Assembly (NCBI GenBank): GCA_963795085.1
Contig: CAWCFX010000006.1
Coordinates: forward strand, 352,001-416,000
Reading direction: 5' to 3'
DNA length: 64,000 nucleotides
Source of the DNA: an uncultured Gemmatimonadales bacterium
GTDB taxonomy: Bacteria; Gemmatimonadota; Gemmatimonadetes; Gemmatimonadales; GWC2-71-9
Numbering within the stretch: position 1 is the first letter of the stretch; the number at the start of each line of letters is the position of its first letter. The notes beneath the pieces were generated by a model, which made no database searches, was not told the origin of the DNA, and saw nothing but the letters and a program-made list of their open reading frames with translations. Made by a program: the position numbers and the translations under genes. Positions 44,347 to 63,392 of this stretch are shown piece after piece.

Positions 44347-44572
44347 GAATTGAGGAAATGGGGGAATTTGTAATTGAGGGAATGGGGGAATTTGTAATTG
44401 AGGGAATGGGGGAATTTGTAATTGAATCCAATTCCACAATTCCCAATTCCCACATTATAAATTCCAACATTCCCTCAATTCCAACATTCCCTCAATTCCA
44501 ACATTCCCTCAATTCCAACATTCCCTCAATTCCAACATTCCCTCAATTCCAACATTCCCTCAATTACAAATT
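44346..44572. repeat. Composite inverted repeat: 24-mer x3 facing 17-mer x6
   Basis: (AATTGAGGGAATGGGGGAATTTGT)3 ... (AATTCCAACATTCCCTC)6 between convergent genes. Confidence 0.9.
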
Positions 44573-44997: not shown

Positions 44998-45016
44998 GGG
45001 TCACGCCTCGGTGATG

Positions 45017-46471
45017 TCAGGAAGGGCCGAGCGCCACGCAGACGTTCTTGGGCTCGGTAAAGAATCGGATCGCCTCGTCGCCGCCTTCGCGCCCTACGCC
45101 GCTGTTCTTCATCCCGCCGAACGGCACCCGCAGGTCCCGCATCAGCCAGGTGTTGATCCAGATGGTGCCGCAGGCCACCTGCTCCGCCACCCGGTGCGCG
45201 CGGGTGAGATCCCGGGTCCAGAGCGAGGCCGCCAGCCCGTAGTCGCTGTGGTTGGCCAGCGCCACCGCTTCCGCCTCGTCCTGGAAGGGTTGCACCGTGA
45301 CCACCGGGCCGAAGATCTCCTCCCGGTTGGTCCGGCACTCCGGGCCCAGCCCGGTGATGACGGTGGGTGACACAAAGAACCCGTCTCGACACCGCGCCGG
45401 CAGGTGTTCCGGCACGCCGCCCCCGGTGAGCACCGTCCCCCCCTCCTCGCGCGCCAGCGCGATGTAGCGCAGGACCTTGTCCCGGTGCGCCGCGGAGATG
45501 AGGGCGCCCTGCTCGGTGGCCGGGTCCAGGGGATCACCGATCACCAGCCCGCGGGCTCGCGCCACGAACCGGTCGAGAAAGTCCCGGTACACCGACTGCT
45601 CCACCAGGAGCCGGGACCCGCAGAGGCAGATCTGTCCCTGGTTGCTGAAGGTCGAGCGCACCGTGGCGGCGATCGCCTGCTCCAGGTCCGCGTCGCTGAA
45701 GATGATCGTGGGGTTCTTGCCGCCCATTTCCAGGGTAAGCTTCTTGAAGCGGGGCGCGGCGGCCGCGGCGATCTGGGCCCCGGTGGCCGTGCCGCCGGTA
45801 AACGAAATGGTCCGCACCGCCTCGTGCCCGACCAGGGCCGCCCCCGCCTTTGCCCCCAGCCCATGGACGATGTTCAGCACCCCGGGCGGCAGGCCGGCCT
45901 CCTCGCAGATCTCGCCCAGCTTCCACGCCGTCATCGGCGCCAGCTCCGATGGCTTGGCGATGGCGGTGTTCCCGGTCGCGATGGCCGGGGCCACCTTCCA
46001 TGACAACAGGTAGAGCGGCAGGTTCCACGGTGAGATGAGCCCGGCCACCCCCCGCGGGCGCCGTAGGGTGTAGTTGAGCGCCGAGTAGTCGGTGGAGTGG
46101 GCCTGCGACTCGGTGTGAAGAATCGCGGTGGCGAAGAACCGGAAGTTGCTCACCGCCCGGGGAATGTCCATGCGGGCCGCCAGCGTCACCGGCTTGCCGG
46201 TGTCCTGCGACTCCAGCCGGGCCAGCTGGTCCTGGTCCCGCTCAATCAGGTCGGCGATCCTGCCGATAATCCGGGAGCGCTCGGCCGCCGGCAGATGGGA
46301 CCAGGCCGGAAAGGCGCGTTCGGCCGCGAGAGCGGCCCCGTCCACATCGGCGGCCGTGCTGTCCGGGATCTCAGCCAGCGCCTGACCCGTGGCCGGCTCC
46401 AGGTTGGGCAGGTATTCGCCGGTGGCGGGGGGAACCTGGCAACCGTCTATGTAGTTGGTGAGTCTGGCCAT
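45017..46471 (-). CDS. 2-aminomuconate/2-hydroxymuconate semialdehyde dehydrogenase (ALDH8A1-like)
   Basis: DIPRAVSNFRFFA, SPWNLPLYLL, NQGQICLCGSR, DLRVPFGG. Confidence 0.9.
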   Translation of the reverse strand: MARLTNYIDGCQVPPATGEYLPNLEPATGQALAEIPDSTAADVDGAALAAERAFPAWSHLPAAERSRIIGRIADLIERDQDQLARLESQDTGKPVTLAARMDIPRAVSNFRFFATAILHTESQAHSTDYSALNYTLRRPRGVAGLISPWNLPLYLLSWKVAPAIATGNTAIAKPSELAPMTAWKLGEICEEAGLPPGVLNIVHGLGAKAGAALVGHEAVRTISFTGGTATGAQIAAAAAPRFKKLTLEMGGKNPTIIFSDADLEQAIAATVRSTFSNQGQICLCGSRLLVEQSVYRDFLDRFVARARGLVIGDPLDPATEQGALISAAHRDKVLRYIALAREEGGTVLTGGGVPEHLPARCRDGFFVSPTVITGLGPECRTNREEIFGPVVTVQPFQDEAEAVALANHSDYGLAASLWTRDLTRAHRVAEQVACGTIWINTWLMRDLRVPFGGMKNSGVGREGGDEAIRFFTEPKNVCVALGPS

Positions 46472-46485: not shown

Positions 46486-46709
46486 GGGTCAGTGGGCCGG
46501 GGGGCCAGTGGGTCAGTGGGACAGGGGGTCAGTGGGTCAGTGGGACAGTGGGACAGTGGGTCAGTGGGTCAGTGGGACGGTGGGACGGTGGGTCAGTGGG
46601 ACGGTGGGACAGTGGGACAGTGGGACGGTGGGACCGTGGGTCAGTGGGACAGTGGGACGGTGGGACAGTGGGTCAGTGGGACAGTGGGTCAGTGGGACGG
46701 TGGGACGGT
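46486..46709. repeat. Degenerate 8-mer repeat (GGGWCRGT)n
   Basis: About 27 units mixing GGGTCAGT, GGGACAGT and GGGACGGT. Confidence 0.92.
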
Positions 46710-46890: not shown

Positions 46891-47709
46891 GTGGCCAAAC
46901 GCTCCAATCCGCTTCCCCTGTCCTGGCAAAAGCCCTGGACCGGGGCCGCGGCGAGCATGGTGATGCACGGCCTGGTCGTGGCGGTGTTCATCTTCGGCAC
47001 CCGGCAGGGGTCCGAGGTCATGCCGACCGGCACGCCGGTGAACGGGGCCCAGCAGGTCTCGATGGTGTACCTCCCTCCGCCGCCCAACCAGCGCCGGCTC
47101 GAACAGCCGGTGTCGCGTCCCGCGCCGGACGCCGTGCAGGCGCAGGAAGACCAGATGGCGCAGATCCGCGCCCAGGCGCCCGACCTGGCACCGGTGCCCG
47201 AAGACGCCACGCCCGAGCCGGATCCCGCTCCGGAGAAGCCGCCGGAATCCATGGCCTCGATTCCTCCGCCGCCCGCGGCCGAAGAACCCACCATGGAGTC
47301 GGAGGCCAAGCGGCTGTTTGGCCGGCCCCGGCTCAATGCCCAGCCCGACAACTCCGGCCAGATGGGCGCCCGCCTCGGCAACATCTCCGAACGCGACGAA
47401 CAGGCCCGCCGCAGTTGCGTGCCCAAGGCCCGCGATCCCAACGCCCAGATCGAGATGGCGGAGTTGATCGGCCGAGTCTGGTTCGACGAAGCCCACACCC
47501 GGCCCCTGGGCGGCGCGTACCTGCAGATGATCGGCACGCCCTATTCCACCTACAGCGACAACACCGGCCGCTACCGGCTGGTCTTCGACGCGTCGCTGGT
47601 GGACGAGTGCCGCACCCAGTACGTCCGGGTGGTCGCGGCGGGCTACAGCGGCAAGAACCTGGTCCTCGGCCTGGGACCCGGCGTCAACGACATCGTCATG
47701 GGGCGCTGA
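46891..47709 (+). CDS. Hypothetical membrane-anchored protein (TonB-like Pro-rich linker, carboxypeptidase-regulatory-like C-terminal domain); start uncertain
   Basis: S..MH TM helix, Pro/Glu-rich linker, SD.TGRY..V.A.GY. Confidence 0.6.
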   Translation: MAKRSNPLPLSWQKPWTGAAASMVMHGLVVAVFIFGTRQGSEVMPTGTPVNGAQQVSMVYLPPPPNQRRLEQPVSRPAPDAVQAQEDQMAQIRAQAPDLAPVPEDATPEPDPAPEKPPESMASIPPPPAAEEPTMESEAKRLFGRPRLNAQPDNSGQMGARLGNISERDEQARRSCVPKARDPNAQIEMAELIGRVWFDEAHTRPLGGAYLQMIGTPYSTYSDNTGRYRLVFDASLVDECRTQYVRVVAAGYSGKNLVLGLGPGVNDIVMGR

Positions 47710-48796
47710 GCAGGCTCGCGATCGACCCTCCCGGCACCGCCATCCGTCCTTCCCGGTTCATCGTCAGCTCGATGGTATCCTTCCCCGCGCCAAACCACCG
47801 CTCGCTCGGCTCCAGGTCGGACGGATAGGTAAAGAGCGGGAGACTCGCCGCGGCAAGCGCCGCCTGCGATCCGATGCCAGACTCCGGCATCGTCCCGGCC
47901 CACAGGGTGGCGCCATATTCCCGCGCGATTCGATAGATCCGGCACACCTCGGTGAGTCCGCCCACCCGGTGCACCTTGATGTTCCACACCTTCGGGCCGG
48001 CCAGCTCCACGATCTGGCGGGCGGCGCGGGCATCGCGCAGGGTCTCGTCCAGGCAGATCGGCGTGTGCAGCGCCCGGTCCAGCTTGGCATGGCCCAGCAA
48101 CTCGTCCGGCGGGAGCGGCTGCTCGATATAGAGCAGGCCTAGCTCGTCAATGCTGCGGAGCGCCGCCTCGTGCTCCGGCCACTCGTAGGCCCCGTTGGCA
48201 TCCACGGTGAGCGGCAGCCCGGTTCCCCGGAGCGTATCCGTGACCGCCCGCACCGGTTCCAGGTCCCAGCCCGGCGCGATCTTGATCTTGACCCGCCGGT
48301 AGCCCAGGCTCACCGCATCCCTCACCCAGCGGCAGAGCGTTTCAATAGTGCGGTCCTGCGGAATCCCCAGCGCCACCCCGCAGGGGACCGACCCGGCGCA
48401 CGGCTCTCCCAGCCGTTCACTCAGCAGGTCGGCCAGCCCGACCCCGCGGGAGGCCGCTTCCAGGTCCCACGCGGCCGTCTCCAGCGCCGCCCGGGCGAAG
48501 GGATTGCCCCGCACTCCGGTCCGGAGCGCCGCGTCGAGTGCCTCCGGGTTCTCGAACTCGCGGCCGCTGACGCGGGGAATCAGCACCTGCTCCAGCAGGT
48601 GCCGGGCGCCGGCCAGCGTCTCTTCCGAATAGAAGGGCAGCTCAAACGGGGGACACTCGCCGTAGCCGAGCGCGCCGTCCCGGCCGTGGAGCACGACGAT
48701 CAGCGAGCGCCGCACCGCTATCGTACCGCCGCTGATAATGAACGGCTCCACCAGCGGCAGTGACAGCTCGCGCAGCTCCACCCGGTCAATCTTCAT
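47696..48796 (-). CDS. menC: Enolase-superfamily OSB synthase/N-acyl-amino-acid racemase
   Basis: KIK, VDAN, IEQP, CLDE, NIK.HRVGG, DLEPS.RWF; catabolic context favours the racemase role. Confidence 0.75.
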   Translation of the reverse strand: MKIDRVELRELSLPLVEPFIISGGTIAVRRSLIVVLHGRDGALGYGECPPFELPFYSEETLAGARHLLEQVLIPRVSGREFENPEALDAALRTGVRGNPFARAALETAAWDLEAASRGVGLADLLSERLGEPCAGSVPCGVALGIPQDRTIETLCRWVRDAVSLGYRRVKIKIAPGWDLEPVRAVTDTLRGTGLPLTVDANGAYEWPEHEAALRSIDELGLLYIEQPLPPDELLGHAKLDRALHTPICLDETLRDARAARQIVELAGPKVWNIKVHRVGGLTEVCRIYRIAREYGATLWAGTMPESGIGSQAALAAASLPLFTYPSDLEPSERWFGAGKDTIELTMNREGRMAVPGGSIASLLSAP

Positions 48797-49931
48797 GGGC
48801 CTCCGCGAGGTCGAGGAACCGGAGCACGCCGTCGCGCCGGTGGATGAGTCCTTCGCCCTCGAGATCCAGCATCCCGGCCACCAGTCCGTGCTGGGGATGG
48901 AACACGAGCTGGTGCAGCGCGCGCGCGGTGCGGGACCCCGCGGTGGCCGCGTACTCGCCCAGGGGAAGCTGGAAGAAGGTGTGCAGCTGCACGCTGGCGC
49001 AGCCATGCCGGGCGTAGTCGAGCACCATGCGGCCGGTGTTGATGTTTCCGGTGCCGGCAAGCGGGAGTCCCACCGCCCGGGCCCGCGGGCGCGCCAGCAC
49101 CCGGAGATTCCGGTCGCTCAGGTCCCATCCGCCGTAGGCCACGCCGAGAGCGGGATCGAAGAGCCGGTTGAATACCACGGCGCCCGCGGCTCCACTCGCC
49201 GCGGCGGCCTCCAGCATGCGCAGCTGGAACTCGTCATCGAACCGGGCGTTCATCAGCTTGAGGGCCAGCCTGGTGGACCCGTGCGCGGCGGTGACCAGCC
49301 CCGGCACCTCGCGGATCCAGCGAAGAATCCGCTCCTGCTCGTCCCCCAGCAGGTCGCCGGCCAGGGTGGGCGAGAAATCTTTTTCCAGGAGAAGCGGCTC
49401 GCTCCCCCACGCCGCGGCGATCTGGCCGGTTGTCCACTGGTACTCCTCCTCGCGGAACGGCTCCTCCAGCCGGGGGAGATGGAACTTCACCGACGGCACC
49501 ACCAGCAGCGATCCCGCTCGGGTGAAGTCGCGGCCGACCCGGACCAGCGCGAGGTAGTCCTCCAGCGAGCGGTCCCAGCCCCGCCCCTTCCAGGTCACCG
49601 TCCACCCCGCTCGGCCCGTCGCGGAGAGCCGCGGCTCCACCAGCATCCGGGCCTCGTGAATCGCCCAGGCCACCATGGACTGCGCGCCGCCTTCATCCTC
49701 CGCGATCACCGTCTTGAGCACGGTGTACGCCAGCCCCGCCTCGGCGTCCGCGGCGAGCTGTTCCTCCTTGAGCGAGAGCTGGCCGCTTCCCTTCCCTATC
49801 GGATGGGGGAGCGGGACGCCGAGGTAGGACGCGGTGAGGTCGATCCCGTACTGCTCCCGCACCACCTGGGGCCAGTCGGCGGGAAGACCCTCCCGGAACC
49901 GTTCGAAGTCAGACTTGAGACTGGCGCGCAT
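48786..49931 (-). CDS. Dihydroorotate-dehydrogenase-like FMN TIM-barrel protein
   Basis: YLG..L.HPIG..SG, VLKTV, GTGNI, GC.SVQLHT. Confidence 0.6.
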   Translation of the reverse strand: MRASLKSDFERFREGLPADWPQVVREQYGIDLTASYLGVPLPHPIGKGSGQLSLKEEQLAADAEAGLAYTVLKTVIAEDEGGAQSMVAWAIHEARMLVEPRLSATGRAGWTVTWKGRGWDRSLEDYLALVRVGRDFTRAGSLLVVPSVKFHLPRLEEPFREEEYQWTTGQIAAAWGSEPLLLEKDFSPTLAGDLLGDEQERILRWIREVPGLVTAAHGSTRLALKLMNARFDDEFQLRMLEAAAASGAAGAVVFNRLFDPALGVAYGGWDLSDRNLRVLARPRARAVGLPLAGTGNINTGRMVLDYARHGCASVQLHTFFQLPLGEYAATAGSRTARALHQLVFHPQHGLVAGMLDLEGEGLIHRRDGVLRFLDLAEAHED

Positions 49932-50785
49932 GCTGCACGGCCGCGATCACGCGGGCCCGGTCGGAATCGGGAAGGGACGGCCCCCACGGGTCATCGCAGG
50001 AGTCGTCGGGGATGATACTCTCGGCGGCGAGGGCCCAGAGCATCCGGCGGATGTATCCCTCCATCGGCTCGGTGAAGGTGGCCTGGGCAAACTCGTCGCA
50101 GACGGCGGAGAGCCGGTGGAAGCGGTCCCAGTCGGCGGCGGCGTGGCTCTGGAGCAGGTCCGCCTGGATGTCGGTGAGGGCGGCGCCCATGCCGATGAGC
50201 GCGGTGGTGGCGCCCATCATGATGGAATAACCCAGGAAGCGGTCTTCCCCGGTGATCAGCCGCTTGCCGGGATGCTTCCGCAGCAGGCCCGCGATCCTCT
50301 GAAACGTCATCACCGAGTCCAGCGTGGCGACCTTGATCCCGGCCACTTCGGGCAGGTCGAGCAGCGCGTCGAGCACCTCGTCGCTGTACGACACTCCCCC
50401 GGCGGCGGCATAGAGATGAAAGACGATCGCCGGGCAGCTCGCGGCCCAGCCGGCGATGATACTCGACCGGGCTGTCGGCCTGGGGGAAGACGAGCAGCGC
50501 ATCGGCGCGGCCCCGCCGGGCCTCGATCGCCATGGTGATGTCCCGGGCGCCGGCGACGATCACCCTGTCTGGAAGCGCCTCGCGCCAGATCTCCAGCACC
50601 AGGCGGCGCTGGTCGGCGCTCAGGTGCGGGCCCCGGCCGGTGTGGGCCCACACCGCCACCCCGGCGACCGGCTGCCCAGCCATCCAGGCCGCGTACTTCC
50701 GGAGCGCCGCCTCGTCAATCGTGTTCCCTCGGAAGGGCACCGGTACGGCGGGAATCAATCCGTCGGGGATGGGCCGCGGCGCCAT
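49909..50785 (-). CDS. DHDPS/N-acetylneuraminate lyase family aldolase, with a frameshift near 50433
   Basis: N-half (IPAVPVPF, WAHTGRG) in the 49991-51001 frame; C-half (Y, GIKVAT, TGED) in the 49909-50502 frame; one extra C in CTGCCCGGCG. Confidence 0.8.
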
Positions 50786-50790
50786 GGGCG

Positions 50791-51576
50791 TCAGCTCCGC
50801 TGGCCGAGGGTGGCCGCGTTGCCGCTTTCGATGGAGGCGCGCTGGGCGTCGGTGAGATCGCTCAGGTCCAGCTTGGCGGGGCCATTCTCTGGCAGCCGGA
50901 GCGGCATGCCGGTGCCGAAGACGAACCGCTCGGCGCCGATGGTGCCGACCAGCGTCTTGAGATGGTCCTCCGGTGGTCCCCAGATCCAGGAGATGTCCCA
51001 CCAGATGCGGCCGGCCTCCTCCGGCGTGGACCCGAAATGCACCTCCTCGATGAACCCGCGATCGGCATGGGTGATGATCATGCGGAGCCGGTGGTGCGCC
51101 CGCACCAGCCCGCGCACCGTGGCGGGCGAGAGATCGGGCGCCACGTCGTTGGGATGGCGCTGCCGCAGGTCCTCCAGCTTCACCGCCATCAGGAGCGGCA
51201 ATCCCATCTCTCCAGACGCCGTCGCCAGGGCGTTCATCGCGGCGCCGGCCGGGTCCATGCCGAGGAAGTTGGGATCGCAGCGCACCGCGGGGGCGCGGTG
51301 GCGGCGCGCCTCGTTCATTACGTCACGCCAGTTGGCCAGCTCCGGCTGCACCGAGGGCACCGGGCGGAACCGGGGTTCCTTCTCCGCCGTCTCGTAGAGC
51401 CAGCCATTGCCCTCGGAAGGGTCCTTCCAGAAGAGGCTGGGCAGGTGGCTCACCCAGGCCTGCGCGATGCCGACCCGGTCCATGTCCGCGAGCACGGCGG
51501 CGGGCGTGGTCCCCGGGACTCGCCGGAAGGGATAGGAGCCGAGGAAGACGTTGACGTCGGTGATGGAGGGAGGCAT
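50791..51576 (-). CDS. Amidohydrolase_2 family protein (degenerate metal site)
   Basis: DVNVFLG replaces the HxH motif; RFVFGTGMP. Confidence 0.75.
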   Translation of the reverse strand: MPPSITDVNVFLGSYPFRRVPGTTPAAVLADMDRVGIAQAWVSHLPSLFWKDPSEGNGWLYETAEKEPRFRPVPSVQPELANWRDVMNEARRHRAPAVRCDPNFLGMDPAGAAMNALATASGEMGLPLLMAVKLEDLRQRHPNDVAPDLSPATVRGLVRAHHRLRMIITHADRGFIEEVHFGSTPEEAGRIWWDISWIWGPPEDHLKTLVGTIGAERFVFGTGMPLRLPENGPAKLDLSDLTDAQRASIESGNAATLGQRS

Positions 51577-52376
51577 CAGTCGAGCGGAAAGGCGTTGGGA
51601 GGAAAGATCCCGGCGGCGTTCCGCCAGCGGATCTGTTCGAGCTGTTCCGGCGTCACCAGCGACTCGAGCCGGCGTAGCTTGGCGAGCCCGGTGCAGAGGG
51701 TGATGTCGGCGCCCCAGAGCAGCCGGTTCGCCCCGACGCTCTCCAGGCACTGTTCCAGCATCCCGCCATCCACCCCGCTGCCTGAGAGATCGATGAACAC
51801 GTTCTCGACGCCGCGCGCGACGTGCAGGGTGTGGATCCAGTCGCCGCCGCCCCCGATGTGGGCCAGGATGAACCGGGTCCGGCTGTGCCGGCCGGCCAGC
51901 TCACAGAGCTCGGCGCCGTCGCTGGCTTCCTGCCCCGGCCAGTCCCGGCGGCGGCGCTGCCAGACGTGGTGCAGGATCGGCGCGCCCCGGTCCGCCGCCA
52001 GCTGGCAGATGGGATCGAGCAGGCGGTCGTTGGCCCGCCGGCTGGCGGCCAGCTTGATGCCGATCATTCCCTGGCCCAGCTTGCGCTCGATTTCCCGCAG
52101 CGCGTGATCGAGGTAGTTGGGATTCACCGCGACGTAGCCCCGCACCCGGTCCCCGTGGGCGGCACAGAGCTTCATCATCTCGTCGTTGCCCAGCTCCACG
52201 TCGGCGGGAGACGGAAAATAGACGGGCGAGGTGAGTCCCCAGCTGCCGAGGATGGACGCGACGTGAATGGTGATGCCGATCCGCTCCCCGGCCTCCATCC
52301 GGCTCCGGTTGCGTTCCTGCCAGTCGCCGCGCGGGGTGCGGGCGTGGTAGAAGTGGGCGTGCACGTCAATCAGCAT
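51576..52376 (-). CDS. Amidohydrolase_2 family protein
   Basis: DVHAH, ILHH, AHIGGG, LWGAD. Confidence 0.85.
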   Translation of the reverse strand: MLIDVHAHFYHARTPRGDWQERNRSRMEAGERIGITIHVASILGSWGLTSPVYFPSPADVELGNDEMMKLCAAHGDRVRGYVAVNPNYLDHALREIERKLGQGMIGIKLAASRRANDRLLDPICQLAADRGAPILHHVWQRRRRDWPGQEASDGAELCELAGRHSRTRFILAHIGGGGDWIHTLHVARGVENVFIDLSGSGVDGGMLEQCLESVGANRLLWGADITLCTGLAKLRRLESLVTPEQLEQIRWRNAAGIFPPNAFPLD

Positions 52377-53533
52377 CAGACCATTCCCCCCAGGACTTCG
52401 TCCAGCGTGGAAAGAACGGCGTCAATTTCACCGGGTCCGTGGGCGAGGGAGACGAAATTGTAGGCCGACCGCTTGAACAGCACGCCCCGCTTCGCGCACT
52501 CCCGGGCCGCCTTGAACGAGGCGTCTTCGCTCCGGAACCTGAGATGGCACATCTCGGGGATACCCGCGACGCCGGGCGCGACGGTCGGATACTTCTTCGC
52601 AAGCGATTCGAGCCCTGCCATCAGGCGGGCGCCCGCCTCGCCCAGCCGGCGGGGGACGCCTTCCCGGCGCATGAACCGGATGGTGGCGAGGGCCGCGGCC
52701 AGCGAGGGCATCTCGGTCGCCAGGGTGGAGGAGATCCAGGTGCGCCGGGCGGCCATCATGACCTCGCGGCTCCCGCCTACCGCCGCGATGGGGAACCCGT
52801 TGCCGATCGCCTTGCCCAGCACCATGAGATCGGGATGGACGCCGAACCGCTCCGCCGCACCGCCGATCGCGAGCCGGCACCCGGTCTTGATCTCGTCGAA
52901 GACCAGCACCGCTCCGACTCCGGCGGTCTCCTCGCGGAGCGCGGTGAGCCATTCCATCGAGGGCAGCCGGTCTATCACCGGCTCGATCACGATGGCGGCC
53001 AGCTTGTCGCCGTGCCGGCGTACCTGCTTCCGCAGGTCCTCGATGTTGTCGAACTCGAGGACCCCCAGGGCCGCCATGGTTCCGTCCGGCACGCCGGCGC
53101 CCTGGCTGCACCAGTCCAGCCAGCCATGGTAACCGCACCCCAGCACCATGGTCCGCGCGGTGTGCACCCGGGCGATCCGCACCGCCGCCGCGACCGCTTC
53201 CGCCCCGGTCTTGAGAAAGATCACCTGCTCGATCCAGGGGATGGCGTCGGCCAGTTCTTCGGCCAGCATTTCTTCCAGCTCCGGCGCCAGCGGGCCGACG
53301 ACGCCGGCGGTGATCCCGCCGATGGCGGCCCGGTTCACGTCGGGGTGCCCATATCCCAGCGCGACCGCGCCCAGCGCCATGATGCAGTCCAGGTACGTCC
53401 GCCCCTGGTCATCCCACACCCGGCACCCCTCGGCGCGCATCAGGCGGCCGGGCAGCCCGCTCGGATCGCCGGGGCCGAACAACGCGTCCGGCCGCTTGGA
53501 GCCCGTGGAGGTAACGCCGGGGATGCGGTTCAT
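52376..53533 (-). CDS. Class III PLP aminotransferase (GSA-aminomutase-like)
   Basis: GYHGW, FDEIKTG, LGKAIGNG. Confidence 0.9.
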   Translation of the reverse strand: MNRIPGVTSTGSKRPDALFGPGDPSGLPGRLMRAEGCRVWDDQGRTYLDCIMALGAVALGYGHPDVNRAAIGGITAGVVGPLAPELEEMLAEELADAIPWIEQVIFLKTGAEAVAAAVRIARVHTARTMVLGCGYHGWLDWCSQGAGVPDGTMAALGVLEFDNIEDLRKQVRRHGDKLAAIVIEPVIDRLPSMEWLTALREETAGVGAVLVFDEIKTGCRLAIGGAAERFGVHPDLMVLGKAIGNGFPIAAVGGSREVMMAARRTWISSTLATEMPSLAAALATIRFMRREGVPRRLGEAGARLMAGLESLAKKYPTVAPGVAGIPEMCHLRFRSEDASFKAARECAKRGVLFKRSAYNFVSLAHGPGEIDAVLSTLDEVLGGMV

Positions 53534-56250
53534 GTCGCCAGCCTGAGAAGGCCGAAACGCGCCGGGTCCTGCCGGTCACCCCTGAGATAGACCCAGCCGG
53601 CGCCGCCGCTCCACACCAGCTGCCCGGCGCGGCGCTGGCGGCCGGGGCGCATCTCGTTTACCAGGAGATCGAACTCCAGCGGCACCCGGTCGTCCATGAC
53701 CCACCCGGGCTTGATCGCCAGGGTGACCCGGTAGCCTTCCGGCGTTTCCGCCCAGGCGCCCGTCACCATCGCGGCGTCACCGGCATAGGGCGACGCCAGC
53801 GCCACCCGGACATCGCCGGAGCCGGGGTCGGGTATCACCAGGAAGCCGAGTACCCGGTCGTCCTGCTTGAGGTAGAGCTGCAGCCCATCGCTGTGAATGT
53901 CGTCCACCTCGTTGTCGAGGCCCAGGGGAGCACTGGTGGCGGCACGGAGAACGATGTCCTCCTTCTTCACCTCGGCCAAGAGAAAGAGATCGTCGTCGCA
54001 CCAGTTGACCCAGGCGGTCGCCGAGAAGTAGTCGGCATCGGCGTAGGGCTCCTCGCTCCGGCGGTACTGGAGCTCGGTATCGAGGGTGATCGGCTCCGAG
54101 AGGTCGAACCCTTCGTCCGACCCGTCCAGGGCCGGCGGCTCGCTGACCCAGGCCGCGGTGGCGGCGGGCCGGTCCGTCCCGGGACGGGTGAAGATGGGCT
54201 CCGGCTCCAGCATCCGCCGCTGGACGCCGGCCAGCTTGATCACCGTGTCGCCCCGCTCGACCTGCCAGCCCTCGAGCAGCGGCGTATGCCGGTCGGTGCC
54301 GCCATGTTCAACGGTAACGACATCGCCCTCGAGGGACAGCCCCGTGATCCGCGCATCGGGCGAGGTGTCGATCACCGTCACCATCCGGCTGGAGGCCGCG
54401 GTCGCCCGCGCCAGGTAGAAGACCTGCTCGCCGGTGCCGGGGGGACCGGGAGCCCGGGCCCGGAGCAGGTCCCCGTCGAACCGGAGATGCAGGCGGCAGC
54501 CCCGGCCACCGGCAGCGGACCGGATGATGAATCCTCCCGCCGTCTCCGGGATGAACTGCTCGGCCTCCCGCACGAACTCGCCGGCCACGCTGTCGGCGGC
54601 GATCCGTTCCCAGCGGCCCGGCGTCTCCACCATGCTCTCGCCGGCCAGGTGCCACGGAAGATCCAGCCGGTGGGTCATGGTGTCGGAGTAGGTGAGGATA
54701 TCGAGCAGATATTCGGGACCCGCCACGACGGTCCGGTCGAACTCGCGGAAGCGTCCCCGCATCCAGCCCCAGTCCCCTTCCTGCTGGAACATCTCGCAGT
54801 CACCGCCTTCATAGGGCTGCGAGTGGCCGTCCAGCAGGGGAGCGTTGTGCGCGAGGGTCGAGCGGTACCAGAAGAGATCGGGGCTGACGTAGCTGCCGGT
54901 GCCGAAGTCGGGAAGCCAGTGCACCCCGCCGGCATGCAGGGCCAGGTGCAGCCGGTCGGGGTGGCCATGCCCGCCTCCCGGCTTGCCGCACTCGAGGCTG
55001 GCGTAGCGGTCGCCCTGGCGCAGGATCGCCAGGCCCTGGGTGGGAAAGTGCCGGCCCGATGGCGTCCACGGTTCGCTCGCCTGCAGCTCCGCCGGCATGA
55101 AGAGCAGCGACCACCAGGAGTGATCGCCGCGTCCCCGGTGCACCGGCGCCGTCTCTCCCGCCTCGTGCAGGTAGGACTCCAGCGGCAGCGCGGGTTGCGC
55201 GGGCGCCTGGTAGAGCGCCGCCAGCCACGATTCCAGCGCACCCGGCTCCCCGCCGCCCAGCAGCCCGCGTCCCACCTCCCACGTCTCCAGGTGCATCGGC
55301 TGCGCCAGGGAGACGCCGAAGCGGGAGTCTTTCCGGGCGGGGAAAGTGAAGTCGGGCAGCGCGGTGAGGGCGGGCGCCAGGAGCGCCGCGCGCAAATGAC
55401 CGGCGACGTCCTCGTCCTCCAGCAGGTGGGCGCCGAGGGAGGCTGCCCAGCCGAGTCCGGTGAGGAGGCCGCGCAGCGCGAAGAGATGGTAGTTCTCTCC
55501 CTCGTACCAGGTGCCGTCGTCCCCGAACCCGTCGGCCAGGTGTCCCATCAGTCCGGTGCGCTCTTCTATGGAAGAGCGGGCCAGGTCTTCATCACCGAAC
55601 CAGGCGGCGATCGCGGTGAGCGCGGCGGCGTGCCAGGTCTGCCGGTTGGAGAGCCCCTCGTTGAAGTCGCCGATCACGCTGGCCGCCTCGTCCGCGATGG
55701 CATCCACGGTGGCGGAGAGGTCCTCGGGCATCCGGTCCGATTCCCGGAGCAGCGTCGCGGCGGCCAGGTAGTTGAGGATCCAGAGCGACTCGAGGTAGGT
55801 AGAGAAGAAGAGGTGGGTGGGGCCCAGCACGTTGTCGCGGTTGGGGAGCTCGAAGTAGAGCGGCTGATAGGCGCCCAGGATCCGGGCCGCCTGTTCTCCC
55901 GCGGCGTCGTGGTTTGCCAGCGCGGCCACAGTGGCGAGGTGGGCGGCCCGCTCGCTCAGCCAGAGATGCTGGAACTTGGCCCAGTGCCGGTCGTGGCGCT
56001 CCCCCCGGACCATCTCGCCGCAGGAAGGGCACCGGTGCGCATCGGGCGACCAGGGGTCGAAGGCCAGCGCCGTCCCGTCTTTGGGGCAGGTGCCGCCATC
56101 CCTGGAGAGGAGCGCCTTTACCTTCGGCACCGGCGGCATCTTCTTGAGCACCGGCTCCGCCCGCTCCACCAGCCGCTGCTGCAGCGCCTGCAGGTCGGGC
56201 GACGCCGCGATCAGCACGCGCCGCTCCTCCAGCTGTTCCCGGGTCACCAT
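53530..56250 (-). CDS. Heparinase II/III-family polysaccharide lyase with C-terminal CBM9-like domain
   Basis: WYEG.NYH, GHGHPDRL, STLAHN, C-terminal PPALDG. Confidence 0.8.
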   Translation of the reverse strand: MVTREQLEERRVLIAASPDLQALQQRLVERAEPVLKKMPPVPKVKALLSRDGGTCPKDGTALAFDPWSPDAHRCPSCGEMVRGERHDRHWAKFQHLWLSERAAHLATVAALANHDAAGEQAARILGAYQPLYFELPNRDNVLGPTHLFFSTYLESLWILNYLAAATLLRESDRMPEDLSATVDAIADEAASVIGDFNEGLSNRQTWHAAALTAIAAWFGDEDLARSSIEERTGLMGHLADGFGDDGTWYEGENYHLFALRGLLTGLGWAASLGAHLLEDEDVAGHLRAALLAPALTALPDFTFPARKDSRFGVSLAQPMHLETWEVGRGLLGGGEPGALESWLAALYQAPAQPALPLESYLHEAGETAPVHRGRGDHSWWSLLFMPAELQASEPWTPSGRHFPTQGLAILRQGDRYASLECGKPGGGHGHPDRLHLALHAGGVHWLPDFGTGSYVSPDLFWYRSTLAHNAPLLDGHSQPYEGGDCEMFQQEGDWGWMRGRFREFDRTVVAGPEYLLDILTYSDTMTHRLDLPWHLAGESMVETPGRWERIAADSVAGEFVREAEQFIPETAGGFIIRSAAGGRGCRLHLRFDGDLLRARAPGPPGTGEQVFYLARATAASSRMVTVIDTSPDARITGLSLEGDVVTVEHGGTDRHTPLLEGWQVERGDTVIKLAGVQRRMLEPEPIFTRPGTDRPAATAAWVSEPPALDGSDEGFDLSEPITLDTELQYRRSEEPYADADYFSATAWVNWCDDDLFLLAEVKKEDIVLRAATSAPLGLDNEVDDIHSDGLQLYLKQDDRVLGFLVIPDPGSGDVRVALASPYAGDAAMVTGAWAETPEGYRVTLAIKPGWVMDDRVPLEFDLLVNEMRPGRQRRAGQLVWSGGAGWVYLRGDRQDPARFGLLRLAT

Positions 56251-57257
56251 GCGCGGACACCCGCCGGCGAGAAGGTCACCGGCAGCACCCGGGCTCCTTC
56301 CGCCCGCGCCGCTTCGGCGACCTCCTCCGGCCGCTCCTTCGCGAGGAAGAACATGCATCCGCCCGCCCCGGCGCCCGCCGCCTTGCCGCCGAACACGCCC
56401 GCCGCCCCGACCACCTGCTCCAGCCGAGCCATGGATTCGGTACGCATCCCCGGGTCGAGCCGGCACTGGTGGGCCCAGTTCTCGCTCAGCAGCGTGCCCA
56501 CCCGCGCCGGATCCCCAGCGCGGAGCGCCTCCGCCATCCGGGCCGCGACGTCTTTCATGCCATGAAACGCATCCACGATGTATCGCTCTCCCCGTTCATA
56601 GCCCTGGATGACCCGGCTGATCATCCGTCCCGAGATGCGCGAGGTGCCGGTGTAGCAGAGCACGGTGTGCCGCTCGAGGAATTCCAGGAACCCGGTATCG
56701 AGATCGAGCCGCTCCGTCTCTACCGCCGGGTCCCGAAAGGTAATCCGGCGAAACCCGCCCAACGCCGCCGCCCACTGGTCCTGTTTGCCTCCCGGCATGC
56801 CCGCTTCCACCACCTCCAGCCGCCACGCCGCCTCGGCGACATCCTCCAGGGCCACCTCCTGCCCGGCCGCCCGGCTCAGCGCGCTCACCAGCGCCACGTC
56901 CAGTGCGCCGGAACTGCCGAGCCCGGAGCCGGCCGGCGCGTCCGAGCGGGTCACGACCGTGGCGTTCGTCACCGGGTACATCCGCACGGCGGTCTGCAGC
57001 AGCGGCAAGTCGCCGCTGGACGTCAGGGCACTCACGCCGTCCACTCTGACTTCCTGGCCCAGGTCCTCCGAGCGGAGCAGCAGGCCCTTTCCGCCCCGCG
57101 TCACCGTCACGTGGGCGGAGAGACCGATGGCGGCATTCACCACCAGCCCGCCTTCACGGGCGGAGAAGGGAGGCACATCGGTCCACCCGCCGGCAAAGTC
57201 CAGCCGGAGCGGTGCGGCGGCGTGCCAGACCCGGGGCGCGGCGTTCCTGTCAGTCAT
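56244..57257 (-). CDS. GHMP sugar kinase (HddA/fucokinase-like)
   Basis: PLRLDFAGGWTD, PAGSGLGSSG, GGKQDQ, GAGAGG. Confidence 0.9.
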   Translation of the reverse strand: MTDRNAAPRVWHAAAPLRLDFAGGWTDVPPFSAREGGLVVNAAIGLSAHVTVTRGGKGLLLRSEDLGQEVRVDGVSALTSSGDLPLLQTAVRMYPVTNATVVTRSDAPAGSGLGSSGALDVALVSALSRAAGQEVALEDVAEAAWRLEVVEAGMPGGKQDQWAAALGGFRRITFRDPAVETERLDLDTGFLEFLERHTVLCYTGTSRISGRMISRVIQGYERGERYIVDAFHGMKDVAARMAEALRAGDPARVGTLLSENWAHQCRLDPGMRTESMARLEQVVGAAGVFGGKAAGAGAGGCMFFLAKERPEEVAEAARAEGARVLPVTFSPAGVRAW

Positions 57258-58692
57258 GGCCCGCCGTCCACCGGGTGACGGTGGCCAGCTCGCCGCGCAG
57301 GTCCATTCGCACGTTCCGGACTCTGCGGTTCATCCCCTGGACTCCTCGCGCATGATATAGGAAGGCCACCGGCACCGACCGGGCGAATTCCTGCTGGGCC
57401 AGGGCGGGGTCGGCCGGGATGGCGATGCCGGCGAGATCGGCCAGTTGCCGCAGGTGGCCCAGCCCCAGGTCGCCGGCGGTGCCCAGCACCGCGGCCTGGA
57501 AGTCGGGGCGGCGGCTGTTGACCCGGTCGAGAAAGGCGGTCAGCTCCATCTGCCGGATGGTGATCCGGACTCCTACTGTCGCCAGCTGGGCCTGGATCAT
57601 CTGTTCCAGCGCCGCCTCGCCGCTTCCCACCGTGAGCAGCTCGATCGCGATCTCCCGGCCCGCCAGCGCGGCGCGGGCCGAATCGAGCTGCACCGGAGCC
57701 GGGGGTATCGCAAGATACCCGGGGACATCGGGGGGCACCGGCCCGGTGGCCACGGTGCCGAATCCATAGATATAGCCATCCACGATCTGCTGCCGGTCCA
57801 TGGCCTGGCCGATGGCCCGCCGCACCCGCTCATCGTTGAAGGGAGCGACGCGGGTGTTGAACACCACCCCGTAGGTGAAGAGCAGCGGGTAGGAGAGGAC
57901 GTCCAGTTCCGGGTTCTCTCTCACGAACGACGCGTGGGCCGGCTGGATGCCCGCGAAGTCCAGCTCGCCCGAGGCGAGCGCCGCCAGCTTGGTGGTGGGT
58001 TCATCCACCACCGCGATGACCAGCCGCGCCAGCCGCGGCGGGCCGCCCAGCTCGGCGGGAAAGTCCGGGTTGGCCTCGAACACCCAGCGGCGGTTGGTCT
58101 CGTGCCGCACGAACCGGAAGGGGCCGTTCCCCACCGGCCGGTCATTCCAGCCGGCGGAGCGGATCCGGGCGAGATCCACCGTGTCCAGCAGGTGCGCCGG
58201 CAGGATGGCGAGATCGGTCAGCACGTCGGGCACGCCGGGCTGGGGCGCGGTGAACCGCAGCACCAGCGTCGAGTCGTCGGTGGCATCGGCTCGGGCGAGC
58301 GTGGCAAGATCGGAGAGCCGGGGATAGCCGGTGACCGGGTCCCGGGCGGCGTTCAGCGTCCAGGCCGCGTCCCCCGCGGTGGTGGGGACGCCGTCGTGCC
58401 AGCGAAGCGTCGTGTGGAGGTGGAAGGTGAGCGTGGTTGAATCGGCGGACCACGCCAGGCTGCGCGCCAGGTAGGGCTCGATGGCGAGCGTGGAGTCGCG
58501 GCGGACCAGCGTGGTGAGCAGCACGTAGCGCTGCACCTGCCGGGCCAGCGGATGCACGGTGATGAGCGGGTTGGCGCTCTGCAGGTCGGCGCCGGAGGCG
58601 AACATCACGGTGGCGCCCCGACGGTCGGCGGGGCGGCCGCAGGCGGCGAGGCAGGCGACGAGGGCCAGGAGGCGGGGGGCGGTGAGTCTCAC
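57250..58692 (-). CDS. Opp/Dpp-family ABC substrate-binding lipoprotein
   Basis: Lipobox LAAC, WHDGVP.TA.D, PVGNGPF. Confidence 0.9.
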   Translation of the reverse strand: MRLTAPRLLALVACLAACGRPADRRGATVMFASGADLQSANPLITVHPLARQVQRYVLLTTLVRRDSTLAIEPYLARSLAWSADSTTLTFHLHTTLRWHDGVPTTAGDAAWTLNAARDPVTGYPRLSDLATLARADATDDSTLVLRFTAPQPGVPDVLTDLAILPAHLLDTVDLARIRSAGWNDRPVGNGPFRFVRHETNRRWVFEANPDFPAELGGPPRLARLVIAVVDEPTTKLAALASGELDFAGIQPAHASFVRENPELDVLSYPLLFTYGVVFNTRVAPFNDERVRRAIGQAMDRQQIVDGYIYGFGTVATGPVPPDVPGYLAIPPAPVQLDSARAALAGREIAIELLTVGSGEAALEQMIQAQLATVGVRITIRQMELTAFLDRVNSRRPDFQAAVLGTAGDLGLGHLRQLADLAGIAIPADPALAQQEFARSVPVAFLYHARGVQGMNRRVRNVRMDLRGELATVTRWTAGHD

Positions 58693-58729
58693 GTGAGACA
58701 AATACTATTACATCGCTAGATTGTTTCCC

Positions 58730-59704
58730 ATGCTTCGCCATCTTGCCCGGCGGCTGGTGGTGGGCCTCGCCATCGTGGCCGGCGTGGTCACCCTGACCTT
58801 CTTTCTCCTGCGGCTGGCGCCGGGGGACCCGGTGGAGCAGCTGCTGGGTCCGGCCGCCACCGCCGACCAGGTCGAGGCCCAGCGCCGCGCACTGGGGTTC
58901 GACCGGCCCCTCGCGGTGCAGTACCTGGCCTGGATGGGCCGCTTCGTGCGGGGCGACTGGGGCACCAGCGTCGCCACCGGGCGGTCGGTCGCCGGCATGC
59001 TGGCCGAAGCGTGGCCCGCCACCGCCGTCCTGGTGGTCCTCTCGCTCCTGGCCAGCTATCTCCTCGGCATCCTGGTCGGCGTGGTCCAGGCGGGCACCCG
59101 CTCCCGCCGGCTGGACACCACCCTCTCCGTCACCACCGTCACCCTCTTCGCCATGCCGGGCTACTGGCTCGGCCTCATGCTGGTGATGGTGTTCACCTAC
59201 TGGCTCGGCGTGCTCCCCGCGTTCGGCGCCGAGGGGCTGGATGCCGACTTCCTGTCGGGGTGGGACCGGCTGGCCGACCGGCTGAGCCACCTCGCGCTGC
59301 CGCTGGCCACGCTCACCCTGGTCGGCATCGGCGGGGTCGCGCGGTTCGTGCGGGGCGCGATGCTGGACGTGAAGCAGTCGGCGTTCGTCACGGTGGCACG
59401 GGCGAAGGGCGTGGGCGAGCGGGCCATCAACCTCCGCCACGTACTGGGCAACGCGCTCATCCCGGTCGTCACCCTGCTGGGTCTCTCCCTGCCGGCGCTC
59501 TTCTCCGGCGCGGTGTTCATCGAGGCCATCTTCGCCTGGCCGGGCGTGGGGCGGATCCTGGTCGAGGCGGTGCGGGGGCGGGACTACCCGGTGGTCATGG
59601 CGGCCACCAGTGTCAGCGCCATGCTCGTCGTGATCGGCAACCTGCTGGCGGACTGGCTGGCCACGCGGGTGGACCCGAGGCTCCGGAGCGCCCATGGCGA
59701 CTAG
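58730..59704 (+). CDS. ABC permease DppB-like
   Basis: LAPGDP, ARAKG, FAWPGVG, DYPVV. Confidence 0.92.
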   Translation: MLRHLARRLVVGLAIVAGVVTLTFFLLRLAPGDPVEQLLGPAATADQVEAQRRALGFDRPLAVQYLAWMGRFVRGDWGTSVATGRSVAGMLAEAWPATAVLVVLSLLASYLLGILVGVVQAGTRSRRLDTTLSVTTVTLFAMPGYWLGLMLVMVFTYWLGVLPAFGAEGLDADFLSGWDRLADRLSHLALPLATLTLVGIGGVARFVRGAMLDVKQSAFVTVARAKGVGERAINLRHVLGNALIPVVTLLGLSLPALFSGAVFIEAIFAWPGVGRILVEAVRGRDYPVVMAATSVSAMLVVIGNLLADWLATRVDPRLRSAHGD

Positions 59705-60563
59705 CGCCATTCCGCTCCGCCGGCCCTGGGCGGGCGGGCTCCTGGCCGACGGCCGCGCGCGGTTCGGCCTCGCCGTGCTCGGCCTGGTCGTGCTCACCGC
59801 GCTGTTTGCTCCGCTCCTCTCCACCGGCGACCCCAACGCCCAGGTGAACGTCGTGGCCACCCGGTTCCTGGCGCCGTTCGCCACCGACCTCAACGGCGTG
59901 TTCCATCTATTGGGCACCGACCGGTTCGGGCGGGACGTGTGGAGCCGGCTGCTCTACGGCGGGCGGATCTCGCTGGCGGTCGGTGTGCTCGCCATGGCGA
60001 TCTCGGTGGCGCTGGGCCTGCTGGCCGGCGCGATGGCGGGGGTCTTTCAGCGCCGGCTCGGTGCCGGCGTCATGGGATTCACCGACTTTGCGCTCGCCCT
60101 GCCCCGGGTCGTGCTGCTGCTGCTGCTCACCGCCCTCTGGCCGCCCAGCGCGGTGCTGGTGGTGCTGGTGCTGGGGTTCACCGGGTGGATGAGCATCGCG
60201 CGGCTGGTCTATGGCGAGACCCGGGCGCTGGTGGCGCGACCGTTCGTCGAAGGCGCCTACGCGCTGGGCGCCCGGCGGTTCCGGGTGCTGTTCCACCACG
60301 TGGTGCCCAACGTGCTCACCCCGGTCATCGCGGCCGCGGCGCTGGGGGTGGGCAACGCCATCATGCTGGAGGCGGGGCTCTCGTTCCTCGGCCTCGGCGT
60401 CCAGCCGCCGGCGGCCTCCTGGGGCAACATGATCGCGTCGGGGCGGGACACCCTGGTGAACGCGCCCTGGGTGGCGGCGGCGCCGGGGGTGATGCTGGTG
60501 CTGGTGGTGGTGGCGTTGACCCTGCTGGGGGACGCGATTCAGCAGAGGCTCAGTAAGCAGTAA
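59694..60563 (+). CDS. ABC permease DppC-like
   Basis: HLLGTD.FGRD..SR, EAGLSFLGLG, SWG.MI. Confidence 0.92.
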   Translation: MATSAIPLRRPWAGGLLADGRARFGLAVLGLVVLTALFAPLLSTGDPNAQVNVVATRFLAPFATDLNGVFHLLGTDRFGRDVWSRLLYGGRISLAVGVLAMAISVALGLLAGAMAGVFQRRLGAGVMGFTDFALALPRVVLLLLLTALWPPSAVLVVLVLGFTGWMSIARLVYGETRALVARPFVEGAYALGARRFRVLFHHVVPNVLTPVIAAAALGVGNAIMLEAGLSFLGLGVQPPAASWGNMIASGRDTLVNAPWVAAAPGVMLVLVVVALTLLGDAIQQRLSKQ

Positions 60564-60735
60564 GAAGTGAGACGTAAGAGGTAAGAGGGATGCCAGTGAG
60601 AAGTGAGCCGTACGAAGTGAGGGGGACTGGCGGTAACATTGGGTGTTGTTCCCTCTGAGGCCGAGAAGACAGGGGCTTCGTAGATCGCCCAGCGCTGACC
60701 TGTTCACCTCTTACTGCTTGCTGCTTACTGCTCAC
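60552..60735. repeat. Degenerate 7-mer repeats (AGTRAGM) with an inverted arm (CTTACTG)
   Basis: cagtaagcagtaagaagtgag...cttactgcttgctgcttactgctcac. Confidence 0.55.
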
Positions 60736-61123: not shown

Positions 61124-61404
61124 CAGGGCAGGCTGAAGCCTGCGACCGCAGGAAGTCTCTCAGGGCCGTCGGCCGTACTGTCACTGAAGCGACAGTAGAA
61201 TTCCAATCGGCGGCGGGTCAATAATCACGAAGGCACGAACGAGACGTCGGAAAGCGCGACAATTGACGGCCTTACCGCCCTGTCTTACCGCCCCGATCTA
61301 CCGCCATGTTCTACCGCCTGGCACCAATGTGAGAGGACAGGCTAAAGCCTGCGACCGCAGGAAGTCCTTTAGGGCCCTCGGCTGTACTGTCGCTGAAGCG
61401 ACAG
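61120..61404. repeat. Two direct copies of a 76-bp REP/BIME-like unit (61120-61195, 61329-61404)
   Basis: Each has hairpins CAGGCTRAAGCCTG and CTGTCRCTGAAGCGACAG. Confidence 0.8.
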
Positions 61405-61525
61405 CATGAATCCGAGCGGGACCGCCCTGTTCTACCGCCCTGTTCTACCGCCCTGTTCTACCGCCCTGTTCTACCGCCCTGTTCGTCTTACCGCCCTGTT
61501 CTACCGCCCTTTTCTACCGCCCTGT
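61270..61525. repeat. 13-mer tandem repeats (CTACCGCCCTGTT)n in two blocks
   Basis: 61270-61320 and 61420-61525. Confidence 0.9.
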
Positions 61526-63252: not shown

Positions 63253-63392
63253 GTAGGAAAATAGCGGGGAGGGTTGGGGGTGGGGGCCGGGATGGAGGAG
63301 GGGGGTCTGGCGGAAATGGTTGGTGGAGGCATACTGGTAGGGGCGGTTTGAACAGCAGGACAAGCCCAGTTAGACACACTCCGAAAGGCCTC

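Follow-up and report, generated by a model that had tools for sequence, protein, structure and literature searches.

A conserved Gemmatimonadales gene cluster that may import and break down uronate-containing oligosaccharides by a non-canonical route

The window analyzed in this study is a stretch of 64,000 nucleotides (positions 352001-416000 of contig C6) from the genome of an uncultured Gemmatimonadales bacterium, which is assembled into 6 contigs, measures 3.9 Mb and is 93.4% complete. It carries a cluster of nine genes on one strand and two divergent genes on the other. The nine encode a family 5 substrate-binding protein (SBP), a GHMP kinase, a heparinase II/III-like protein that resembles PL17 alginate lyases (the lyase-like protein), a class III aminotransferase, two Amidohydro_2 proteins (Amh1 and Amh2), a DHDPS/NAL-like protein, a DHODH-like protein and an enolase-superfamily enzyme of the OSBS/N-succinylamino-acid racemase (NSAR) type, and the divergent pair encodes two ATP-binding cassette (ABC) permeases (permB and permC). 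On balance, we favor the view that this cluster imports an acidic oligosaccharide containing uronate and degrades it in the cytoplasm, through a non-canonical route that replaces KduI/KduD or DEH-reductase. A first-pass annotation of the same DNA had listed a uronate-containing oligomer cut by a lyase among its candidate substrates. This is the best-supported substrate class, as the lyase-like protein aligns with PL17 enzymes and keeps both catalytic tyrosines and the neutralizing asparagine. The same annotation recognized no described pathway with this gene set, and our full-text literature searches likewise returned none.

The lyase-like protein matches PF07940 at 50.3 bits and PF05426 at 22.3 bits, barely above the cut-off of 22.2. 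It combines an N-terminal alpha/alpha toroid (Alginate_lyase) with a C-terminal Hepar_II_III beta-sandwich, and the precomputed Pfam annotation of its homologs agrees with this two-domain architecture. When its profile was compared with the PDB, PL17 alginate lyases were the only lyases matched (E 6.7e-14), and a C-terminal CBM9-like domain matched the CBM9 of xylanase 1i82 (E 1.4e-4). In the hidden Markov model alignment, residues N201, Y258, and Y450 of the PL17 lyase Alg17c pair with N202, Y254, and Y454, none of which varies among 16 sequences, so that the catalytic tyrosine pair of PL17 (Y254 and Y454) is present. Moreover, H413/H415/H464 of Alg17c, near the PL17 metal site, align with H428/H430/H468. 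In Alg17c, the carboxylate is neutralized by N201 and H202, with Y450 serving as base and Y258 as acid, and both Alg17c and the related lyase AlyA3 have been described as exolytic (PMC8600288). By analogy, the lyase-like protein would act on oligomers after their uptake. It also bears an N-terminal zinc-ribbon-like insert of C-H-C-C type with invariant C55, H72, C74, and C77, and inspection by eye revealed no evident signal peptide. Altogether, these features predict a cytoplasmic uronate lyase that would be of the exo type. In another genome of the same family (G124:C3:1136455-1139170), the gene matches as two adjacent pieces, covering residues 5-401 and 403-905, which suggests a frameshift or a split.

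The profile of the lyase-like protein was searched in 185,579 species genomes, one genome per species, and returned 581 relatives. Neighbors were counted in the best 80 of these 581 loci, all from Gemmatimonadota, with the loci that have enough flanking sequence as denominators. In 54 of 62 loci, the lyase-like gene is immediately preceded by the kinase and SBP genes, the divergent permeases are found in 43 of 47, and the aminotransferase, Amh1, and Amh2 genes follow downstream in 50 of 62 (53 of 62 anywhere in the locus). The synteny on which the first-pass annotation had staked its reading is therefore conserved, and it is confined to Gemmatimonadales. The single nine-gene operon first proposed is not supported as one unit: the module of DHDPS-like, DHODH-like, and enolase-superfamily genes, present in 28/47 loci, is an addition found in part of one family (f1), and the kinase gene is absent from at least one genome of a second family (f2). 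The core consists of the two permeases, the SBP, the PL17-like protein, the aminotransferase, Amh1, and Amh2; the kinase is usual, and the final three genes form a sub-lineage add-on. The cluster has genes for GH38 mannosidases at its flanks in 35 of the 80 loci.

Of 301 genomes sampled evenly across the phylum, 144 have the lyase-like gene and 145 have Amh1. Both genes are present or absent together along family lines, with 95 of 125 genomes in f1, 45 (lyase-like) and 46 (Amh1) of 70 in f2, all three genomes in f3, and none of 102 in nine other families. These tallies, and the count of the DHODH-like gene given below, include the unpublished genomes G056, G181, and G156. About one quarter of the sampled f1 genomes and one third of the f2 genomes lack the cluster despite a completeness above 90%. 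In the complete f2 genome G135, the order is permC-permB, then divergently SBP, lyase-like protein, TrmJ, aminotransferase, Amh1, and Amh2, with no add-on module; the f3 genome G068 has the kinase and lacks the module.

Some orthologous loci harbor inserted genes. A TrmJ-type SpoU tRNA methyltransferase gene, missing from this position in the window, separates the lyase-like and aminotransferase genes in G135 and in a subset of f1 (L045:12784-13527, L035:5868-6626, and L082:16317-17210, among others). In one locus, permB and the SBP gene are separated by genes for a sulfatase, an OPT transporter, and a class II amidotransferase (L027:1718-6046), and the SBP and kinase genes by one for a DAHP synthase/chorismate mutase (L027:8464-9546).

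Amh1 and Amh2 are PF04909 proteins of the ACMSD-like branch. In Amh1, the metal-site residues D4, H6, H8, H137, H173, and D224 do not vary among 29 sequences and supply the ligands typical of PF04909, presumably on strands 1, 5, 6, and 8 of the fold. Among solved structures, Amh1 comes closest to ACMSD and aromatic-acid decarboxylases, with a weak match (E 3e-7) over residues 60-140. Amh2 keeps an Amidohydro_2 match of 37.1 bits; in the hhalign alignment its HxH motif is replaced by D-x-N-x-F and the strand-8 Asp by Thr/Gly, so that the metal ligands of the family are missing. Comparison of both proteins by hhalign (probability 96.5%, 21% identity) indicates that they are distant paralogs. Since the relatives of Amh1 are decarboxylases and Amh2 has lost HxH and the strand-8 Asp, the deacylation that the first-pass annotation ascribed to the two amidohydrolases is unsupported, and we rejected this function. 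A model of the Amh1-Amh2 complex scored 0.93, a level attained by 116 of 157 complexes of solved structure and by 2 of 215 mismatched pairs, while the best of three controls scored 0.01; the partner value of the predicted local distance difference test was at least 93 and contact agreement at least 89%. As a prediction, the model supports binding, and Amh2, which is fused to Amh1 in haloarchaea, is probably its partner subunit. The Amh1 family comprises 3461 representatives at E<=0.001, of both split and fused lengths, and an atlas search with Amh1 returned Gemmatimonadota PF04909 clusters only.

Outside the phylum, the pair recurs in different arrangements. Five haloarchaeal megaplasmids code for a single protein of ~560 residues in which an Amh1-like half precedes an Amh2-like half. 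One plasmid of Halomontanus rarus (NZ_CP119797.1) holds five such fused genes at 784-865 kb. The surrounding island also encodes a heparinase II/III protein, sulfatases, an Opp-type ABC system, a C-N hydrolase, and enolase-like proteins, and 20 kb away lies the gene for a class III aminotransferase with 34% identity to that of the window over its full length. Nonomuraea gerenzanensis has two Amh2/Amh1 pairs with two DegT aminotransferases, an ABC permease, and, nearby, a DHDPS-like gene 44% identical to that of the window. A metagenome scan, queried with a single protein, identified a contig of 44-47% GC on which a gene for a 1315-residue Hepar_II_III_C protein is directly followed by an Amh1-like gene (29% identity) and an overlapping Amh2-type gene (hhalign 99.5%). 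That 1315-residue protein has no BLAST similarity to the lyase-like protein of the window, and a tblastn search of plasmids with the latter gave weak partial matches only. These independent associations provide the strongest argument that the Amh pair and the aminotransferase would act on the product of a heparinase II/III-type enzyme. Genes for RidA and Yip1 are found in some Gemmatimonadales loci and in haloarchaeal contexts alike, and the context of an Amh1 relative in Chlorohelix was uninformative. Looking up the clusters of ten distant relatives of Amh1 yielded neither taxa nor informative names. Three further Hepar_II_III_C open reading frames of ~1250 residues lie at 361-387 kb of NZ_CP119797.1.

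The distribution of the cluster bears on a different proposal, namely that it recycles or remodels an acidic exopolysaccharide or envelope glycan of the cell itself, and does not serve foreign polymers. A wide presence in f1, f2, and f3 that stays within one taxonomic order would fit such a role, as would the lack of a dedicated regulator or ATPase, the predicted cytoplasmic location of the lyase-like protein, and the embedding of the housekeeping gene trmJ in the operon of some lineages. However, the many near-complete f1 and f2 genomes that do without the cluster argue against it, no glycosyltransferase or export gene adjoins the cluster in the window, and the haloarchaeal contexts resemble catabolic islands, with IclR regulators and sulfatases. 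We regard this proposal as improbable.

The last three genes of the cluster raise the question of how many units are present. The DHDPS-like gene is split over two frames (open reading frames 49991..51001 and 49909..50502) by one extra base near 50430-50434, so that its N-terminal 119 and C-terminal 173 residues are encoded separately. In all 33 loci holding both halves, the ortholog is a single open frame of ~293 residues. The N-terminal part encoded in the window reaches 18.4 bits, below the Pfam cut-off of 22.1, while the ortholog profile matches DHDPS/NAL structures at E 5.6e-14 with a conserved column for the Schiff-base lysine (K152). Among public sequencing runs, none was found to hold the frameshift stretch (best share 0.12), and for this reason the frameshift may reflect either an assembly indel or a true pseudogene. 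The DHODH-like protein has no Pfam match at E<=0.01, PF01180 included, and no sequence match in the PDB. A partial match to the NCBIfam model PRK07565 (23.7 bits against a cut-off of 303) covers residues 30-93, and the neighbors retrieved by a language-model atlas search are Gemmatimonadota clusters in which 11-19% of members carry DHO_dh. The NSAR-type protein scores 236 bits with TIGR01928 (cut-off 200.65), its solved NAAAR/NSAR relatives match at E 1e-64 to 1e-83, and it has the residues of OSBS/NSAR enzymes, K170-x-K172, D199, E225, D250, and K274, which we take to be the catalytic set. MenD (TIGR00173) was not found in this 93.4%-complete genome by a search that was positive in 14 of 14 control genomes. 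This makes a role in menaquinone synthesis unlikely, and we rejected MenC as the identity of the gene. One locus has, between the DHDPS-like and DHODH-like genes, an inserted gene for an FAD enzyme resembling sarcosine/N-methyltryptophan oxidase (229 bits, cut-off 257; L045:17768-18976).

These three genes could be an independent pathway that merely lies downstream of the sugar cluster in one sub-lineage. Their patchy occurrence is in line with such an arrangement: the DHODH-like gene is found in 28 of 121 genomes, all from f1 (by family, 27 of 55 in f1 and 0 of 28 in f2), the module is absent from G135 and G068, and the DHDPS-like gene of the window is frameshifted while its neighbors are intact. 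Yet wherever the DHODH-like gene was found it is within a few kb of the cluster (e.g., in G067, G019, and G045), the module of the window overlaps internally and is separated from Amh2 by only 5 bases, and a related DHDPS-like gene accompanies the Amh pairs of Nonomuraea. We therefore consider two separate units rather unlikely, while giving this arrangement more weight than any of the other alternatives weighed here.

The kinase has GHMP_kinases_N/C domains and a GSGLGSSGA motif at residue 110, and its best solved relatives are 3k85, 4n3o, and WcbL 4usk. It belongs to the HddA/fucokinase branch of GHMP kinases, but since it scores 136.9 bits with the HddA model, far under the cut-off of 600, we discarded its identification as HddA (D-glycero-D-manno-heptose 7-phosphate kinase). 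The aminotransferase is a member of Aminotran_3 (163 bits); GSAM is among its solved relatives, as are the sugar C-6' aminotransferases 7lld and NeoN. It reaches 179 bits with the hemL model, whose cut-off is 527.3, and a better candidate for HemL (glutamate-1-semialdehyde aminomutase) is found elsewhere in the genome (350.6 bits), so this identity was also rejected.

As for transport, the SBP matches SBP_bac_5 at 226 bits, reaches no NCBIfam equivalog cut-off, and carries a lipobox (LAAC, Cys21) that would presumably make it a lipoprotein. PermC contains BPD_transp_1 and OppC_N, with Opp4C as its best NCBIfam match (232 bits, under the cut-off), and permB contains BPD_transp_1 and BPD_transp_1_N; the latter starts at ATG 58730, with an alternative TTG at 58721. 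Family searches of the window found no ABC ATPase gene adjoining the cluster. The locus thus encodes an SBP and two permeases of an Opp/Dpp-type importer and lacks the two ATPases of a complete one. The sole oligo_HPY-type ATPase pair of the genome is located ~150 kb from the cluster (C6:244-246 kb), inside a complete Opp operon.

A transporter of this type, together with the class III aminotransferase, the NSAR-type racemase of a genome in which MenD was not found, the oxidase-like and RidA genes inserted in some orthologous loci, and the M14 peptidases and C-N hydrolases encoded close to the fused genes of haloarchaea, would also be expected if the cluster imported and converted a nitrogenous small molecule, such as a peptide, a glycopeptide, an N-acyl or D-amino acid, or an opine/Amadori-type conjugate, and if the lyase-like protein were not a uronate lyase. 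We doubt it. The lyase-like gene is the most faithful companion in the cluster and its product keeps the PL17 tyrosines, the Amh pair recurs beside an unrelated heparinase II/III gene, related contexts are dominated by sulfatases, GH38, and sugar-type oxidoreductases, and the racemase module is limited to part of f1.

For the breakdown of a uronate-containing oligosaccharide, the following scheme is inferred throughout, in its class of substrate, its sequence of steps, and each of its reactions. The family 5 lipoprotein SBP and the two Opp-type permeases would import the compound, presumably borrowing the only OppD/F-type ATPase pair of the genome. The signal-peptide-less PL17-like enzyme would then cleave it by beta-elimination. 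The resulting unsaturated uronate would bypass the KduI/KduD or DEH-reductase route and pass instead to a PF04909 heterodimer of catalytic Amh1 and degenerate Amh2, and the GSA-aminomutase-like aminotransferase may act on a carbonyl of the product. A neutral sugar released would be phosphorylated by the HddA/fucokinase-type GHMP kinase. Some members of one family could extend the route with the DHDPS/NAL-like enzyme (whose gene is broken in this assembly), the DHODH-like protein, and the NSAR-type racemase.

Several observations weigh against this scheme. The similarity of the lyase-like protein to PL17 is weak, remote, and confined to two stretches. Of the Asn-His neutralizing pair, Asn is kept and H202 of Alg17c is replaced by R203, invariant in 16 sequences; hence, the protein fails one defining feature of PL17, although this Arg could still neutralize the carboxylate. 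The solved relatives of Amh1 act on aromatic or muconate acids as decarboxylases and match it weakly and partially, and the homodimers known for the PF04909 fold may contribute to the score of the Amh1-Amh2 complex. Family 5 SBPs and Opp permeases carry mostly peptides, nickel, or opines, and the best NCBIfam matches of the transport genes are NikA/Opp/Dpp models, all far under their cut-offs. To our knowledge, no uronate pathway has a place for an aminotransferase. Within Gemmatimonadota, G135 lacks the kinase, the aminotransferase gene is not followed by Amh1 and Amh2 in four loci (L032, L049, L078, and L079), and in seven loci two opposite-strand genes, for another DHDPS-like protein and an SDR/epimerase, split the lyase-like gene from the rest. 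Finally, GH38 is ~68 kb away from the cluster in the genome of the window.

A broader and far more speculative version of the scheme can be put forward. The Amh1/Amh2 heterodimer and the aminotransferase might constitute an unrecognized route that processes the 4,5-unsaturated uronates arising from cleavage by heparinase II/III-type enzymes, replacing KduI/KduD and scattered among Gemmatimonadota, Actinomycetota, Halobacteria, and the source organism of the 45% GC metagenome contig. In such a route, the ACMSD-like enzyme would decarboxylate or hydrate the keto-aldehyde acid, and amination would yield an amino-aldehyde acid cyclizing to a hydroxylated cyclic imino acid. This imino acid might be handled by the DHDPS-fold, DHODH-like, and NSAR-type enzymes and, in some genomes, by a sarcosine/pipecolate-oxidase-like enzyme and RidA. 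Taken as a whole, we judge this version unlikely.

The features of the cluster are listed in Table 1. The DNA of the window has a G+C content of ~70%, and genuine genes were therefore told from spurious open reading frames by third-position GC and family searches. Third-position GC is 0.83-0.95 in all open reading frames of the cluster, which indicates that they are coding.

Table 1. Genes of the cluster and the divergent spacer (positions of the window; aa, amino acids)
Feature	Position	Strand	Product or note
SBP, family 5	57250-58701	-	483 aa
GHMP kinase	56244-57257	-	337 aa
Heparinase II/III-like, PL17-like	53530-56250	-	906 aa
Class III aminotransferase	52376-53533	-	385 aa
Amh1, first Amidohydro_2 protein	51576-52376	-	complete metal site
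Amh2, second Amidohydro_2 protein	50791-51576	-	degenerate paralog of Amh1
DHDPS/NAL-like class I aldolase-fold gene	49909-50785	-	frameshifted
Divergent DHODH-like protein	48786-49931	-	381 aa
OSBS/N-succinylamino-acid racemase-type, enolase superfamily	47696-48796	-	366 aa
ABC permease, OppB/DppB type (permB)	58730-59704	+	324 aa
ABC permease, OppC/DppC type (permC)	59694-60563	+	289 aa
Divergent spacer, SBP start to permease start	58702-58729		AT-rich, ~28 bp

The open reading frame listing and the start-codon analysis bear out the nine overlapping or abutting genes with divergent permeases that had first been described. The nine run on the minus strand from 58701 to 47696, with overlaps of 1 to 23 bases or a 5-base gap at their junctions, and the permease genes occupy 58730-60563 on the plus strand, divergent from the SBP gene. 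The original family calls stand, with four corrections. Pfam and NCBIfam agree with them through SBP_bac_5, GHMP_kinases_N/C, Hepar_II_III_C with Alginate_lyase, Aminotran_3, two Amidohydro_2, MR_MLE, and two BPD_transp_1 matches; the corrections are that the DHDPS-like gene is frameshifted, that the amidohydrolases are ACMSD-like PF04909 proteins for which a deacylase role is unsupported, that none of the Pfam models is matched by the DHODH-like protein, and that the cluster lacks an adjoining ATPase gene. The reported absence of a regulator also stands, because no open reading frame between 46.8 and 61.5 kb of the window matches a regulator family. With a spacer of only ~28 bp, the promoters must overlap coding regions or the mRNAs be leaderless. 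A consensus promoter scan found no site in this spacer, and the promoter and terminator scan as a whole was not above chance (one promoter-like site with 0.6 expected, four terminator-like sites with 4.0 expected).

The surroundings of the cluster contain further elements. A separate kynurenine-pathway set at 39156-46471 comprises a 3-hydroxyanthranilate dioxygenase, an ACMSD-type Amidohydro_2 protein, a kynureninase, an FAD monooxygenase, a tryptophan 2,3-dioxygenase, a RidA protein, and an aldehyde dehydrogenase. Between the aldehyde dehydrogenase gene and a 295-residue open reading frame of no known family, the octamer GGGACAGT forms a tandem array of 27.6 copies (46486-46706). Immediately 3' of the permC stop, a 36-base repeat is present in 1.9 copies (60558-60626), and non-coding arrays of 13-base units follow at 61271-61318 (3.7 copies) and 61421-61525 (7.8 copies). 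The downstream open reading frames at 61514-61978, 62140-62577, and 63028-63363 encode two AAA_33 kinase-like proteins and one lambda Bor-like lipoprotein.

Gemmatimonadales abound in soils, and little is known of their carbon sources. Carriage of the cluster by about three in four genomes of one family and two in three of another suggests that its substrate is important to this order. In addition, our results single out a recurring trio with no described function, formed by a heparinase II/III-type enzyme, a split or fused double amidohydrolase, and an aminotransferase. If this trio handles unsaturated uronates, it would fill a gap for lyase carriers that have neither KduI/KduD nor a DEH reductase, and would add a nitrogen-linked branch to uronate catabolism. 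The pairing of a catalytic and a degenerate subunit, fused in archaea, also offers a clean target for structural and enzymological work.

Canonical routes for unsaturated uronates proceed through KduI/KduD or a DEH reductase, followed by KDG kinase and KDPG aldolase. As in the alginate, pectin, and glycosaminoglycan loci, substrates of a lyase type would be imported by an ABC system and processed in the cytoplasm, and the cluster likewise encodes a kinase and an aldolase-fold enzyme. Unlike them, it encodes none of the canonical enzymes and has a PF04909 heterodimer and a class III aminotransferase instead; its kinase is of the GHMP and not the PfkB type, and its aldolase-fold enzyme is related to DHDPS and not to Eda. 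In haloarchaea, glycosaminoglycan loci have been described with PL8/GH88 and the canonical downstream route, and the word amidohydrolase has no occurrence in the accessible text of that report (PMC13260240).

Among individual enzymes, the lyase-like protein shares the Alginate_lyase and Hepar_II_III_C build with Alg17c from Saccharophagus degradans (4nei/4ojz) and AlyA3 from Zobellia galactanivorans (7bjt) and retains their Asn, the two catalytic Tyr, and the His residues at the metal site between the domains. It differs from them in its zinc-ribbon-like insert, its CBM9-like domain, and the Arg in place of His, and, in contrast to PL17 systems, no KdgF, DEH reductase, KdgK, or Eda genes lie beside its gene. 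The window's NSAR-type protein passes TIGR01928 and keeps the KxK, D-E-D, and K residues of the NSAR/OSBS enzymes from Amycolatopsis (1sja), Deinococcus (1r0m), and Thermus (2zc8), but its gene has no adjacent succinyltransferase or desuccinylase and no MenD context, and is restricted to a sub-lineage. ACMSD and the related amidohydrolase-2 decarboxylases (2hbv and 4ifk; gamma-resorcylate decarboxylase and LigW) are the best solved sequence relatives of Amh1, with which ACMSD shares the HxH, His, and Asp metal ligands. ACMSD is a homodimer, whereas the Amh dimer would be a heterodimer with one subunit devoid of metal ligands, and the gene context of the Amh pair is that of carbohydrate and not aromatic metabolism.

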